A stretch of DNA of 11,511 nucleotides from a virus. The translations under genes were made by a program, and so were the position numbers. This document shows, one piece after another, positions 5,435-11,511 of this stretch; the first letter of the stretch is position 1; each line of letters begins with the position of its first letter. The stretch is from UHGV virus genome UHGV-0110285; one strand, written 5' to 3'. The notes beneath the pieces were generated by a model. The model was not told the origin of the DNA. It did not search any database and worked only from the letters and a program-made list of their open reading frames with translations.

Positions 5435-5488
5435 GGCTGAACTCCTGAAAATGGCTGTGAAAATATCGCCCGCGAAATGCCAGGCTGA

Positions 5489-5602
5489 TTAGGAAAACAG
5501 GAAAGGGGATTAGTGATTCAGGCCGTTACCGCGTCCGTCGAGAAAAACTTCCACGAGCAAATCACGGGTATCTGGCTGAAAGAGGGGGTTATTAAGGCGT
5601 GA
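5489..5602 (+). pseudogene. 3' remnant of the gene normally upstream of rusA (product unknown), truncated at the gam/nin junction
   Basis: Open frame ..[27 protein letters not shown] ends with a TGA that overlaps the rusA GTG start (GTGA coupling) but has no start codon; its upstream end runs into gam-derived sequence. Confidence 0.4.
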
Positions 5603-6183: not shown

Positions 6184-6567
6184 ATGCGTGATATTCAGAT
6201 GGTTCTTGAGCGTTGGGGAGCGTGGGCGGCTAATAATCATGAAGATGTGACCTGGTCGTCCATTGCCGCCGGTTTTAAGGGATTAATTACTTCAAAAGTA
6301 AAATCTCGCCCGCAATGTTGTGACGATGACGCGATGATTATTTGCGGGTGCATGGCCCGTCTGAAAAAGAACAACAGCGATTTGCACGATTTATTAGTAG
6401 ATTATTATGTAGTCGGTATGACATTCATGTCACTGGCAGGTAAGCATTGCTGCTCTGATGGTTATATCGGGAAAAGGTTACAGAAGGCTGAGGGTATAAT
6501 TGAAGGGATGTTAATGGCATTAGATATCCGGTTAGAGATGGATATCGTTGTTAATAACTCTAATTAA
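6184..6567 (+). CDS. quuD: Late-gene antiterminator Q (QuuD-like, non-lambda Q type), 127 aa from the ATG at 6184 (the track ORF begins at a TTG at 6169)
   Basis: [24 protein letters not shown].. with Cys-rich stretch [16 protein letters not shown]; GGAG 8 nt upstream of the ATG; sits between rusA/ylcG and the lysis genes. Confidence 0.8.
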
Positions 6568-6600
6568 TACGCCAATTATTTACTAAAAGTTATTAAAAAT

Positions 6601-6619
6601 GGGGCGTTGAAACGCCCCC
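6601..6619 (-). terminator. Intrinsic terminator for minus-strand (porin) transcripts: GGGGCGT-TGAA-ACGCCCC followed by AUUUUU on the minus strand
   Basis: Perfect 7-8 bp GC stem read directly; the T-run is on the minus-strand side. Confidence 0.6.
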
Positions 6620-6658
6620 AAAAATAAAGGGTAATATATAACAGAAGGTTTGTATAGT

Positions 6659-6706
6659 TAGAAGCAAGGTTGTGCTTCTAAAGGAAGTGGCTTGAGGGAG
6701 CCACTT
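6659..6706. other. Two back-to-back stem-loops with identical geometry (8-bp stem, 6-nt loop): TAGAAGCA-AGGTTG-TGCTTCTA at 6659-6680 and AAGTGGCT-TGAGGG-AGCCACTT at 6685-6706
   Basis: Perfect inverted repeats read directly; neither has a flanking T-run. Confidence 0.6.
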
Positions 6707-6710
6707 ATAT

Positions 6711-6745
6711 GTTGGGGAGGCAAAGCCTCCCACAACATATCTTTT
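6711..6745 (+). terminator. Intrinsic terminator for plus-strand transcripts leaving Q: GTTG(G)GGGAGGC-AAA-GCCTCCC(A)CAAC followed by UAUCUUUU
   Basis: 11-bp stem with one bulge plus a downstream U-run on the plus strand. Confidence 0.55.
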
Positions 6746-6755
6746 AGTAATCAAA

Positions 6756-7838
6756 TTAGAACTGGTAAACCATACCTACAGCAACGATATCATCGGTAGC
6801 AACGCCAGATGCTTTCGTGAAATCGCTCTTATCAATCAGGTTGATTTTGTAGTCAACAAAAGTGGACATATTTTTGTTGAAGTAATAGGTTGCACCTACA
6901 TCAACATATTCAACCAGGTCCTGATCACCCCAAACACCCAAGTCTTTTCCTTTAGAATGCAGGTAAGCAACGGATGGACGCAGGCCGAAGTCGAACTGAT
7001 ATTGTGCAACAGCTTCGAAGTTTTGTGCTTTGTTGGCAATATGGTTATTACCAAAAACAGTCATGTTCTGGGTTTCAGAATAGGTGGTGGCCAGATAGAT
7101 GTTGTTCGCATCATATTTCAGACCAGCTGCCCATACTTCAGCATTTTGACCAGAAGCATTCAGACCGTTGTTACCGTAGATAACCTGATTATTAGTGCGA
7201 TCAGATTTAGCATAGGTTGCACCCACGCCGAATCCTTCATACTCATAAGTAGTTGAGAAACCGAAACCATCGCCATTAGCTTCAGTTACTTCATTTCGGT
7301 CATTTTTGCCCTGATACTGAGCTGCAAAGTTCAGGCCATCAACCAGACCAAAGAAGTCGTTGTTACGATAAGTTGCAACACCTGTGGTGCGACCAGTCAT
7401 GAATACATCTGTTTGGGTCCAGGTATCGCCACCGAATTCTGGCAGAACGTCAGTCCACGCACCGATGTCGTATGCTACACCGTAGTTACGGCCGTAATCG
7501 ATGGAGCCGTAGTCACCGAATTTCAGGCCAGCGAAGGCAAGACGGGTTTTATCTTTGGAGGAACCTTGAGATTCAGCGCGGTTGCCTTTGAATTCATATT
7601 CCCACTGACCGAAACCAGTCAGTTGATCGTTGATTTGGGTTTCACCTTTGAAGCCAAGACGGGCATAAGTAGTATCACCATCATCTGCATCATTAGAGGA
7701 GAAGTAGTGTTTAGCATTAACTTTCCCGTACAGATCCAGCTTGTTACTGTCTTTATTATAAATTTCAGCTGCCTGAGCAGACATCGCCATCAGTACTGAT
7801 GCAGCTACAGCAGAAATTGCCACTGTTAATTTTTTCAT
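6756..7838 (-). CDS. nmpC: Phage-borne general porin of the OmpC/OmpF superfamily (Lc/NmpC/OmpD-like), 360 aa, apparently intact
   Basis: Signal peptide [23 protein letters not shown] then AEIYNK..; 16-strand porin-like sequence ending in a C-terminal Phe (..VGMVYQF); convergent with Q, the arrangement known from PA-2 lc and DLP12 nmpC. Confidence 0.9.
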
Positions 7839-8060
7839 CGTGAGCCCTTTTTTTTGAACTATTATTAAAAAATGATGTCACTGCGCGATAAATATTCATC
7901 TAATCAATATGATTATTTCAAGATGTAAGTTTTGGTTTCTCGTTTGATTTGTGAAGTAGATCTCTATTTTTATCTGAACTTTTTTCTATCGAATCCTATT
8001 CATGGCTCTTGGCTGAATAAAAATAAATCTATTAGCCAATTTATATTAACGGTTGTTATT
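7839..8060 (-). promoter_or_regulatory. AT-rich 5' control region of the porin gene (promoter not resolved)
   Basis: About 220 bp of AT-rich non-coding sequence immediately upstream of the porin ATG on the minus strand. Confidence 0.3.
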
Positions 8061-8266
8061 TATAAGTGCTCTATGATTTGAAGGTTCAATTTAAATCGGC
8101 TAAAAATAACACTAGAAATTATTTGTTGGTTATTTGTTGAGATTTGCTTATGTATTTGTAGTGGTGTTTTCAATACTCGGTAGCATTCTCGCAAATATCA
8201 TTTAGTGGTTTACGTACGTAAAAAATTGGTTATGCTGTTAAGAGTGGTTACTTCGTCACACAGCTT

Positions 8267-8300
8267 AAACCCGCCGTCGAGCGGGTTTTTCCATTTTTTG
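8267..8300 (+). terminator. Intrinsic terminator on the plus strand about 115 nt upstream of the holin (tR'-like): AAACCCGC-CGTCGA-GCGGGTTT followed by UUCCAUUUUUU
   Basis: Perfect 8-bp stem plus a U-rich tail on the plus strand. Confidence 0.6.
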
Positions 8301-8411: not shown

Positions 8412-8627
8412 ATGAAATCCATGGATAAGTTAACAACGGGTGTCGCCTATGGCACCTCAGCAGGTAGTGCCGGGTACTGGTTTTTACAGCTGCTAGATAA
8501 AGTCACGCCCTCACAGTGGGCGGCAATTGGAGTGCTGGGTAGCCTGGTATTTGGCCTGCTGACGTACCTGACAAACCTTTATTTCAAGATTAAAGAAGAT
8601 AAGCGCAAGGCTGCGAGAGGTGAATAA
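8412..8627 (+). CDS. essD: Class II holin/pinholin of the phage 21 S type, 71 aa, with dual-start motif MKSM
   Basis: [71 protein letters not shown]: two transmembrane segments, charged C-terminus, Met1/Met4 starts; GAGGTGG RBS. Confidence 0.9.
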
Positions 8628-9124
8628 TGCCTCCATCATTACGAAAAGCCGTTGCTGCTGCTATTGGTGGCGGAGCAATTGCTATAGCATCAGTGTTAAT
8701 TACTGGCCCAAGTGGTAACGATGGTCTGGAAGGTGTCAGCTACATACCATACAAAGATATTGTTGGTGTATGGACTGTATGTCACGGGCATACAGGAAAA
8801 GACATCATGCTCGGTAAAACGTATACCAAAGCAGAATGCAAAGCCCTCCTGAATAAAGACCTTGCCACGGTCGCCAGACAAATTAACCCGTACATCAAAG
8901 TCGATATACCGGAAACAACGCGCGGTGCTCTTTACTCGTTCGTTTACAACGTGGGTGCTGGAAATTTCAGAACATCGACGCTTCTTCGCAAAATAAACCA
9001 GGGCGATATCAAAGGCGCATGTGATCAGCTACGTCGCTGGACATATGCTGGCGGTAAGCAATGGAAAGGTCTCATGACTCGTCGTGAGGTTGAGCGTGAA
9101 ATTTGTTTGTGGGGTCAGCAATGA
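8627..9124 (+). CDS. rrrD: SAR (signal-anchor-release) endolysin, lysozyme of the phage 21 R type, 165 aa
   Basis: N-terminal Gly/Ala-rich weakly hydrophobic segment [20 protein letters not shown] followed by a lysozyme-like domain; ATG overlaps the holin TAA (TAATG). Confidence 0.92.
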
Positions 9125-9579
9125 ACAGAGTAACCGCGATTATCTCCGCTCTGGTTATCTGCATCATCGTCTGCCTGTCATGGGCTGTTAATCATTACCG
9201 TGATAACGCAATCGCCTACAAAGAGCAGCGCGATAACAAGGCCAGTGAACTGGAGAAGGCGAACGCCACCATCGCTGACATGCGGAAGCGTCAACGTGAT
9301 GTAGCAGAACTCGACGCAAGATACACAAAGGAGCTTGCTGATGCTAACGCGACTATCGAAAGTCTCCGTGCTGATGTTTCTGCTGGGCGTAAGCGCCTGC
9401 AAGTCGCCGCCACCTGTGCAAAGTCAACGACCGGAGCCAGCGGCATGGGCGATGGAGAAAGCCCAAGACTTACAGCAGATGCTGAACTCAATTATTACCG
9501 TCTCCGAAGTGGAATCGACAAGATAACCGCGCAGGTTAACTACCTGCAGGAATACATCAGGACGCAATGCCTGAAATAA
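9121..9579 (+). CDS. rzpD: Rz spanin inner-membrane subunit (i-spanin), 152 aa from the ATG at 9121 overlapping the endolysin stop (the track ORF starts at 9103)
   Basis: [28 protein letters not shown].. : N-terminal transmembrane segment then a coiled-coil-like periplasmic domain; position after the endolysin. Confidence 0.85.
9341..9526 (+). CDS. rzoD: Rz1 outer-membrane lipoprotein spanin (o-spanin) embedded in the +1 frame of Rz, 61 aa from the ATG at 9341 (the track ORF starts at a TTG at 9335)
   Basis: [20 protein letters not shown]|[16 protein letters not shown].. : lipobox ending in Cys, proline-rich mature part; AAGGAG 9 nt upstream; fully nested in Rz. Confidence 0.8.
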
Positions 9580-9636: not shown

Positions 9637-9784
9637 CATCTGAATTTCACAGCGCATCTCACGCGCATATTACATCACCCGAGCCTTTCAGAAAGTTGAG
9701 CCTGAGAACTGCCGTATATGGTGGCGACCATCTCGGGGCGGCTTTTCTGTGAGACAGGCTCACTTTCTAAAAGGTAAAGACGCT

Positions 9785-10273
9785 ATGAACCAATTAGAAG
9801 AAAAGCTTCAAAGAATGATTTCCTTATACAAGGAAGATAACTGCCAAAAAGTTCCTGAAAACATCGCAGAGTTAATGGAATTGGCAAGTGAATTTTCTGG
9901 CATGCTTAAGTCGTCAGGTGTTCGGTCAGCGTTCTTTGTTGAAATGCTGATGCACGGCGGACTTATGGCAACAATGAGACGTGTAATGGAAGACCAGAGA
10001 AAAGAACCTCCTCAGGTATACGTTTTGTCATCGAAGAAAACTGGGCTAACCAAAATTGGGTATTCATCCAACATTCCACAACGCATCAAATCGCTTGGCA
10101 ACTCTGGACCAGACTGCTTGAAGCTTGAGTGCCTGATCCCTGGTGGAAGAGAAACTGAAAACATGCTTCATCGCAAATTTGCCGCAAAGAGAAAGCACGG
10201 TGAATGGTTCGCCCTGTCCAAGGATGACATTGAGGGATTGAAATCTGTAGCGATTACTTCTGATGGCTATTAA
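9785..10273 (+). CDS. Hypothetical protein with a C-terminal T5orf172/GIY-YIG-like domain, 162 aa from the ATG at 9785 (the track ORF starts at a GTG at 9749); sits where lambda carries bor
   Basis: C-terminal half QVYVLSSKKTGLTKIGYSSNIPQRIKSLGNSGPDCLKLECLIPGGRETENMLHRKFAAKRKHGEWFALSKDDI fits the T5orf172 pattern (VYVL..KIG...R..L...E..LH..F...R..GEWF); AGGTAAAGA RBS before the ATG; N-terminal 75 aa helical with no recognised similarity. Confidence 0.6.
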   Translation: MNQLEEKLQRMISLYKEDNCQKVPENIAELMELASEFSGMLKSSGVRSAFFVEMLMHGGLMATMRRVMEDQRKEPPQVYVLSSKKTGLTKIGYSSNIPQRIKSLGNSGPDCLKLECLIPGGRETENMLHRKFAAKRKHGEWFALSKDDIEGLKSVAITSDGY

Positions 10274-10951: not shown

Positions 10952-11362
10952 TTAGTGCGGAAATATTTGTGTAGTGTTCTGAATGTTCTCAGTAAAGAGT
11001 AATGAATTATCAAAGGTATAGTAATACCTTTTGTTTTCGTGGATATTTGTAATCCATCTGAAAACCCCTGCTGTAGCAAGATTTTTCCTGTATTCGTAAA
11101 ATGATAACTCTCCTGATTTGAATCCTTTTAAGGTGGCTTCTATAAGGCATTTATTTTTTGAAAATCTTACATTTACAACCTTACCCTGTCCTTTTATTAA
11201 AACCGTATTATCGTTTTCAAGAACAAGATGAATATTCTCTGTGGCTAAATAGTAAATGTAATGTGAGACATTGTGACGTTTTAGTTCAGAATAAAACCAG
11301 TGATAGTTTAAATTATTTCGCACTTTATCGAATATTTGTTTAAAAATGGCAACCTGAGCCAT
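10952..11362 (-). CDS. AT-rich hypothetical protein, 136 aa from the ATG at 11362 (the track ORF starts at 11377); tentatively YbcV-like
   Basis: [38 protein letters not shown].. ; GGAAGG RBS 7 nt upstream of the second ATG; 136 aa equals the recalled size of DLP12 YbcV, which lies in the same place and orientation relative to the lysis genes; strongly AT-biased codon usage. Confidence 0.45.
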
Positions 11363-11511
11363 TGTAGTACCTTCCATGTGATATGAGGGGCGTAGTCTGC
11401 ACGATTATCTAAATTGCTTCAATCTGGTCTGATCTGTTTTCTGAGCAATTCAGTAATTGATCCTACCCACGTAATATGGACACAGGCCTAAGCGAGGTTC
11501 TTGTTTTCAAA

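Follow-up and report, generated by a model that had tools for sequence, protein, structure and literature searches.

The stretch of DNA analysed here (the window, 11,511 nucleotides of UHGV virus genome UHGV-0110285) carries the late antiterminator gene Q on the plus strand (6184-6567), followed by a porin gene read in the opposite direction (7838-6756) and then by lysis genes that begin with S at 8412, again on the plus strand. Q on one strand and the porin gene on the other are convergent, as the preliminary description had it. The features of the locus are the following:

6184..6567, plus strand: late antiterminator gene Q, QuuD type, 127 aa (Pfam Phage_antitermQ, E 4e-53)
6544..6567, plus strand: last 8 codons of Q, lying within cassette-specific DNA (left boundary 6543/6544)
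6601..6618, minus strand: intrinsic terminator, 7-bp G+C-rich stem followed by a T-run (terminator scan, RNA fold)
6707-6740, 6685-6706 and 6658-6681, minus strand: three strong hairpins of the 3' UTR (RNA fold; kept in DLP12 and PA-2)
6756..7838, minus strand: porin coding sequence, 360 aa and stop (list of open reading frames, Pfam and NCBIfam matches, alignment with solved porins)
7770-7838, minus strand: signal peptide, codons 1-23 (identical to the signal peptide annotated in PA-2, J02580.1)
6759-7769, minus strand: mature porin, 337 aa (sequence after the signal peptide)
7839..8037, minus strand: porin promoter region, corresponding to K-12 PnmpC from -199 to -1 (near-identity to PA-2 and K-12)
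8038..8207, minus strand: distal AT-rich upstream part, up to the right cassette boundary (GC content; homology to a porin-less relative resumes at 8208)
8209..8288, plus strand: late promoter unit pR'/leader/tR' (alignment with VT1-Sakai and H-19B, terminator scan, identity to DLP12)
8412..9579, plus strand: lysis cassette of phage 21/DLP12 type (Pfam Phage_holin_2_1, Phage_lysozyme, Phage_lysis)
8412-8627, plus strand: S holin (Pfam Phage_holin_2_1)
8627-9124, plus strand: SAR endolysin (Pfam Phage_lysozyme)
9103-9579, plus strand: Rz (Pfam Phage_lysis; PHROG Rz-like spanin)

The porin reading frame starts with ATG, ends with TAA and is uninterrupted in the list of open reading frames. Its product matches the Pfam profile PF00267 (Porin_1) over the full profile (1-337/337), with an E value of 3.6e-152 and 507 bits against a gathering score of 23.7. 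It also exceeds the cutoff of the NCBIfam 'porin OmpC' model (515 bits versus 484), a model that describes a subfamily and is not an equivalog, and it stays below the NCBIfam equivalog cutoffs for PhoE and OmpF. Scores of this kind over a frame of 360 codons cannot be a matter of chance. Residues 24-360 align with the solved chains of OmpK37, OmpC, OmpK36, PhoE and OmpF, with E values from ~1e-135 to ~1e-107, and the gaps of these alignments fall solely where the families vary in length, with no frameshift and no truncation. Residues 1-23 make a typical Sec signal peptide ending in A-x-A, the same as the sig_peptide feature of J02580.1. The mature protein begins with AEIYNKD, which fits the pattern of the class, AE(I/V)YNKD; the PEFGGD motif of the constriction loop (L3) and the C-terminal YQF, an aromatic beta-signal with its final Phe, are both present and aligned with their counterparts in OmpC, OmpF and PhoE. 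On these features the protein is a member of the general diffusion porins of enterobacteria, the OmpC/OmpF/PhoE class. An identity of ~65% to solved trimeric porins suggests the usual fold, a 16-strand trimeric barrel; an AlphaFold2 model built on an 18-sequence alignment, in which all homologues were at least 73% identical, had a mean pLDDT of 33.5. Reading frame, Porin_1 match and YQF end thus agree with the 360-residue porin, provided with a signal peptide and a C-terminal Phe, that had been proposed previously. The gene had also been said to read as intact, and full-length alignments to solved porins, Lc, NmpC and OmpD uncover neither frameshift nor insertion.

Within the class, the closest relatives are of phage origin. 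The protein is 91.7% identical to authentic Lc of phage PA-2 (J02580.1) and, again, 91.7% identical to NmpC of K-12, the latter being the sequence rebuilt by removing IS5; between them, Lc and NmpC share 98.9% identity. Identity is 81.8% with Salmonella OmpD, 67.7% with OmpN, 64.5% with both OmpC and PhoE, and 62.9% with OmpF. The Lc/NmpC subtype put forward in the preliminary description is therefore the one returned when OmpC, OmpD, NmpC and Lc are compared. By these alignments the window porin belongs to the PA-2 Lc / DLP12 NmpC (OmpD-type) family, and membership is settled because the flanks of the gene are nearly identical to those in PA-2 and DLP12. Family and position hence stand as first described, that is, as the arrangement of PA-2 lc and DLP12 nmpC. 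The allele, however, differs: at 91.7% identity it is a mosaic. Nucleotides 1-360 of the gene show two differences from K-12 nmpC, whereas the remainder is ~19% divergent, from lc as well, between flanks that are nearly identical on both sides. Against Lc, the protein counts ~30 substitutions and a five-residue difference in length (360 aa versus 365 aa). Changes with respect to Lc and NmpC are concentrated at residues 149-151, 182-187, 216-231 and 263-267, and these segments overlap the stretches that are rich in insertions and deletions when OmpC, OmpF and PhoE are aligned. Going by established porin structures, we assign them to the last part of L3 and to loops L4-L6 on the outside. A 360-aa cluster of E. 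coli, with 2,741 member sequences, shares 96% identity with the divergent block. An OmpD-like donor of this block was considered and rejected, as the block is no closer to OmpD (83.5%) than to NmpC (86.4%). Divergence within conserved flanks points to replacement of the allele by recombination, and the gene, as far as its alignments tell, is a mosaic allele that would differ from Lc and NmpC mainly in its outer loops.

The place of the gene with respect to late transcription can be specified by comparison with phages that share its Q and have no porin. Q is named QuuD in the annotation of relatives and has a distant match to the solved Q21 protein (E 7.6e-07); it aligns with Q of H-19B up to residue ~120 and then diverges. 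In Lambda_ev087 and PhiR40_1, two porin-less phages with the same Q, homology to the window ends at 6543 (Q codon 120), and in PhiR40_1 it resumes at 8208. Just beyond lies the late promoter pR', with a -35 hexamer TTTACG (8209-8214), a 16-nt spacer and a -10 hexamer TATGCT (8231-8236), followed by a 30-nt leader and by the tR' stem (8267-8288) with its T-run. Positions 8208-8290 align with the region of VT1-Sakai annotated as 'putative late promoter / Q-utilization / terminator for pR' transcript' and with H-19B, and the pR'/tR' unit is identical to that of DLP12 at 83 of 83 positions. A further relative with a different lysis module (L009) has homology running from Q through the porin and ending exactly at 8290. 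These breakpoints delimit a porin cassette of ~6544-8207 situated between the Q gene and pR'. The preliminary description had the gene lying antisense between Q and the lysis cassette; this is correct and can be refined, the gene being upstream of pR' (8209-8236) and outside the late transcript. It follows that Q-modified late transcription need not cross the porin gene in antisense, and also that the site where Q has to act, in trans, is ~1.65 kb downstream of the Q gene. The layout agrees with what has been published for DLP12 and is not new: there, the S-R-Rz operon has its own regulatory region and is controlled by a Q-type antiterminator, RpoE and Hha (PMC7918800). The lysis cassette of the window, of phage 21/DLP12 type, seems complete. 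It includes a gene for an Rz1-type o-spanin lipoprotein (9335-9526, plus strand), out of frame inside Rz and with a lipobox-like LGVSAC.

Upstream of the porin gene, the 199 bp that precede the ATG are identical to PA-2 lc at 199 of 199 positions and to K-12 DLP12 nmpC at 197 of 199. GC content is 0.29 over 7839-8207 (28-30% according to the stretch taken), in agreement with the AT-rich control region noticed before. In K-12, deletion of -199..-1 abolishes the activity of PnmpC, and its transcription start was found to be a 'G' by 5' RACE (PMC11677980). PnmpC is an active sigma-70 promoter, described as activated by Crp and repressed by OmpR, IHF and MprA, and nmpC is under additional control by small RNAs (PMC11677980). 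The PA-2 record annotates two CRP sites, and the window keeps each of them at 21 of 21 positions, the proximal one at 7947-7967 and the distal one at 8243-8263. The distal 'CRP site' of that 1986 record falls within the pR' leader, where occupancy by CRP is putative. By eye, a candidate porin promoter may be proposed with a -35 hexamer TTGAAA (7916-7921), an 18-nt spacer and a -10 hexamer GAATAT (7892-7897). Transcription would then start at G 7886 or 7884, and the proximal CRP site would be centred near -71, as in class I promoters. A generic promoter scan of the window called neither the porin promoter nor pR', both of which were placed through their homology with sequences annotated or tested elsewhere; the porin promoter was missed because its proposed hexamers score below the 9-of-12 threshold of the scan. 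As for small RNAs, nmpC mRNA has been reported as a target of RybB (PMC3333887). In the window, the 7 nt CAGUGGC of porin codons 5-7 (7819-7825) match the seed at the 5' end of RybB without a mismatch. When pairing with the 5' end of the porin mRNA was compared with 300 shuffles, the real score was equalled or exceeded by 32 of them for RybB, 37 for MicC and 258 for MicF; the RybB seed match alone is thus no evidence, because its duplex is matched or beaten by 32/300 shuffles.

Downstream of the gene, the scan finds an intrinsic terminator on the minus strand (6618..6601), made of the stem GGGGCGTTTCAACGCCCC followed by ATTTTTAATA. It lies 138 nt past the porin stop codon and 34 nt from the stop codon of Q; DLP12 and PA-2 keep all aligned bases of its stem and show a single substitution in its loop. 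This is the porin's own terminator that the preliminary description had placed at 6601-6619. The segment 6585-6760, read on the minus strand, folds at -59.1 kcal/mol (z = -7.68), and none of 200 shuffles is as stable. Within it, the 3' region of the porin (6601-6740) forms four consecutive hairpins, with a T-run solely on the last, which is the terminator, and the region is nearly identical in the window, DLP12 and PA-2. Stabilisation of the mRNA or extra termination are guesses as to what the first three hairpins might do. A scan of the whole window against Rfam (E <= 1) gave no match, which leaves the hairpin array and the pR' leader outside its curated families.

On the left side of the window, the element that carries the cassette has an arm of lambda type, with Int (356 aa), Xis, Exo, Bet and Gam, the closest relative of which adjoins ybhC. 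The gam-kil arm can be followed by homology to ~5571, and from 5566 onwards the window is homologous to the final codons of ybcO and then to rusA. Over 5435-5600, Gam and a truncated kil-type gene are seen joined to a ybcO/DUF1364 gene of which the final ~11 codons are present, and rusA follows. Missing from the element within the window are N, cIII, the immunity region (cI/cro), O, P and most of nin, and a check for what makes a prophage complete found neither repressor nor replication genes there, the structural genes lying past the end of the window. The junction at ~5566-5571 was present in none of 5,426 complete E. coli genomes, and exact-match scans of one-genome-per-species (GTDB) contigs found none either; the junction may be a true deletion or may have been made by the assembly. 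Because the immunity, replication and nin regions have been lost, the window prophage looks like a defective remnant and not like an inducible lysogen. With N, immunity, O/P and nin gone at this junction, speaking of a lysogen, as was done at first, overstated the case. Towards the right end of the window, a gene at 9749-10273 (plus strand) codes for a 174-aa protein with a T5orf172/MUG113 (GIY-YIG-like) domain (phrog_4284) and fills the position after Rz that bor has in lambda and DLP12. At 10952-11377 (minus strand) there is a DUF1398 protein of YbcV type whose family bears the label 'head protein' in PHROGs, a label that looks doubtful because the position and orientation of the gene are outside the structural genes.

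Known systems put these observations in perspective. The same layout of Q, antisense porin and lysis genes is found in DLP12, PA-2, 434B and PhiR70_1. PA-2 Lc (protein 2 of J02580.1) occupies the slot of the window porin, faces the lysis genes in the same way and shares its signal peptide, proximal CRP site, 3' hairpin array and terminator, but PA-2 is a viable phage whereas the window prophage is deleted for control regions. In DLP12, the order rusA, Q (QuuD), antisense porin (NmpC, b0553), pR'/tR', essD, rrrD, rzpD is that of the window, and both elements are defective prophages. Yet DLP12 has an integrase of its own and is located at argU, whereas the window element has a lambda Int and matches a prophage next to ybhC, and the C-terminal two thirds of the window porin are a different allele from DLP12 NmpC. 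Furthermore, nmpC of MG1655 is interrupted by IS5, while the window copy is uninterrupted; disruption of the K-12 copy by an insertion sequence, stated in the preliminary description, is indeed what its annotation gives. The same insertion is present in phage 434B. The closest chromosomal relative is OmpD of Salmonella enterica, a major porin of 362 aa, and nmpC has been treated as the E. coli counterpart of ompD (PMC3333887). OmpD, however, is core chromosomal and not phage-borne, and its signal peptide and several of its loops differ from those of the window porin. A wider comparison is with the morons, bor and lom of lambda and stx of Stx phages: like the porin gene, they are self-contained, with their own promoter and terminator, they lie near the late-control region, and they can alter surface or virulence phenotypes of the host. 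By contrast with the porin gene, which is upstream of pR', antisense and independent of Q, stx is downstream of pR', in the sense direction and dependent on Q (VT1-Sakai layout).

Taken as a whole, the locus is best read, with a probability of about 0.9, as an intact and self-contained Lc/NmpC cassette, an antisense cargo between Q and pR' that has its own CRP-activated promoter and its own terminator, does not depend on Q and would endow the host with an extra porin. The sigma-70 promoter of the cassette, activated by CRP, would be used by the RNA polymerase of the host independently of the lytic programme; the protein would be exported via Sec, lose its 23-residue signal peptide and insert in the outer membrane as a trimeric 16-strand diffusion pore. 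On the analogy of nmpC free of IS5, the porin would be abundant under carbon limitation and at 37 C, trading off against OmpC, and it would alter permeability to nutrients and antibiotics as well as the set of surface receptors for phages and colicins. With the immunity and replication regions of the prophage gone, the gene would behave as a host gene of phage origin, in effect domesticated. What is said here of transcription, protein level and phenotypes in the source strain is extrapolated from related strains, and pore properties are presumed for an allele that is ~30 residues away from Lc and NmpC. The analogy draws on several studies. In the K-12 strain NCM3722, where nmpC is uninterrupted, NmpC makes ~2% of the proteome and is the major porin under carbon limitation, in reciprocal relation with OmpC, and MG1655 offsets the loss of NmpC with more than 10-fold more OmpC (PMC8144880). 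In K-12, nmpC mRNA increases 16.5-fold on a shift to 37 C (PMC8544407), and the copies of CFT073 are also up at 37 C, as RNA and as protein (PMC12890032). With promoter DNA that is near-identical, and given this proteomics of other strains, expression is likely here too.

It might be objected that the gene is intact but silent, a 'quiescent' porin whose AT-rich upstream region is bound by OmpR, IHF, MprA or nucleoid proteins that prevent its expression, with the result that it adds little to the envelope. The title of a 1998 article by Prilipov, cited in PMC3333887, indeed calls nmpC 'quiescent' in E. coli BE, which means that expression can depend on the strain or on the condition; the upstream region has 29% GC, and the three regulators are those described as repressing PnmpC in K-12 (PMC11677980). 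Such silence is nonetheless improbable, in view of the transcripts that near-identical promoter DNA yields at a detectable level in K-12 (PMC11677980), of the ~2% of the proteome that a near-identical promoter supports in NCM3722 (PMC8144880) and of the strong response to 37 C in K-12 and CFT073 (PMC8544407, PMC12890032). A pseudogene with a hidden defect, be it a compensated frameshift, a damaged signal peptide or a lost beta-signal, has next to no chance of being the right answer: it is suggested by nothing other than the IS5-disrupted copies of K-12 and phage 434B, and it is refuted at the level of sequence, since the protein aligns over its full length with solved porins, Lc, NmpC and OmpD with gaps confined to loop regions, is the same as NmpC over residues 1-148, keeps PEFGGD and YQF, and recurs unchanged in thousands of assemblies, some of them with complete-looking prophages. 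That the gene might be the host's own ompC, its phage neighbours being coincidental, has just as negligible a likelihood, for although RefSeq annotates it as 'ompC: porin OmpC' and the NCBIfam subfamily model of that name is passed, identity to K-12 OmpC is 64.5%, with 23 gap columns, against 91.7% to Lc and NmpC with identical flanks, the gene stands where 43 phage records have it, between Q and S, and none of the neighbours of ompC in K-12 (ftp, micF, rcsD) is found within the window. Orthology with ompC is thus ruled out by identity and gene context, and 'porin OmpC' should be taken as a subfamily-level name because identity to OmpC is far below identity to Lc and NmpC.

The Lc/NmpC cassette is anything but rare. 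When the stretch between the end of Q and the beginning of S, porin included, is compared with phage genomes, it has matches in 43 records, and in 36 of these at least 80% of its length is covered; among the 43 are the plaque-forming PhiR70_1 (98.7%), ev243 and phage 434B, the record of which has IS5 after porin codon 346. The porin with both of its spacers, covered to at least 80% in one place, is present in 2,464 of 5,426 complete E. coli genomes (~45%). In an assembly collection, 7,500 indexed blocks contain the very same 360-aa protein, which occurs in complete-looking prophages, with O, P, nin, Q, porin, lysis genes, terminase and portal, as well as in degraded ones. Gene family, position, regulation and abundance are already known from published work, and the allele is present in thousands of assemblies and in viable phages; no feature examined sets the gene apart from the family as described. 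Mild interest attaches to the mosaic nature of the loop allele, to the RefSeq name, which is misleading, and to the other antisense genes found in the slot between Q and pR'. Regarding the latter, Lambda_ev087 has at the same place, beside Q, an antisense gene for the lipocalin Blc (3035-3559 of L018), and PhiR40_1 an antisense gene for a hypothetical protein of 148 aa (2951-3397 of L019). As these different genes share their breakpoints with the porin cassette, at Q codon 120 on the left and, in PhiR40_1, at the -35 hexamer of pR' on the right, it is conceivable, although we would rather wager against it, that the gap between Q and pR' is a dedicated exchange slot for antisense cargo in this family of Q, and that the 360-aa allele is one of several L4-L6 loop variants kept by recombination under pressure from phages, colicins or antibodies. 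More speculative still, the four-hairpin array might insulate Q from a very strong convergent porin transcript, with leak-through making an anti-Q RNA.

PA-2 uses OmpC as its receptor. According to a proposal made by Highton in 1985, in the form in which it is summarised in PMC5381585, porins of phages lower receptor proteins such as OmpC and so limit superinfection. The reciprocity between NmpC and OmpC fits this proposal. For the reader of genome annotations, the label 'porin OmpC' that RefSeq gives to such genes is misleading, and the present finding helps correct it. It opens no new question, and it is of use when phenotypes of the source strain are to be interpreted. An uninterrupted gene of nmpC type can supply a major porin of the outer membrane, and strains that carry it may therefore differ from laboratory strains of the MG1655 type in the uptake of nutrients when carbon is limiting, in the entry of antibiotics and in sensitivity to phages and colicins.
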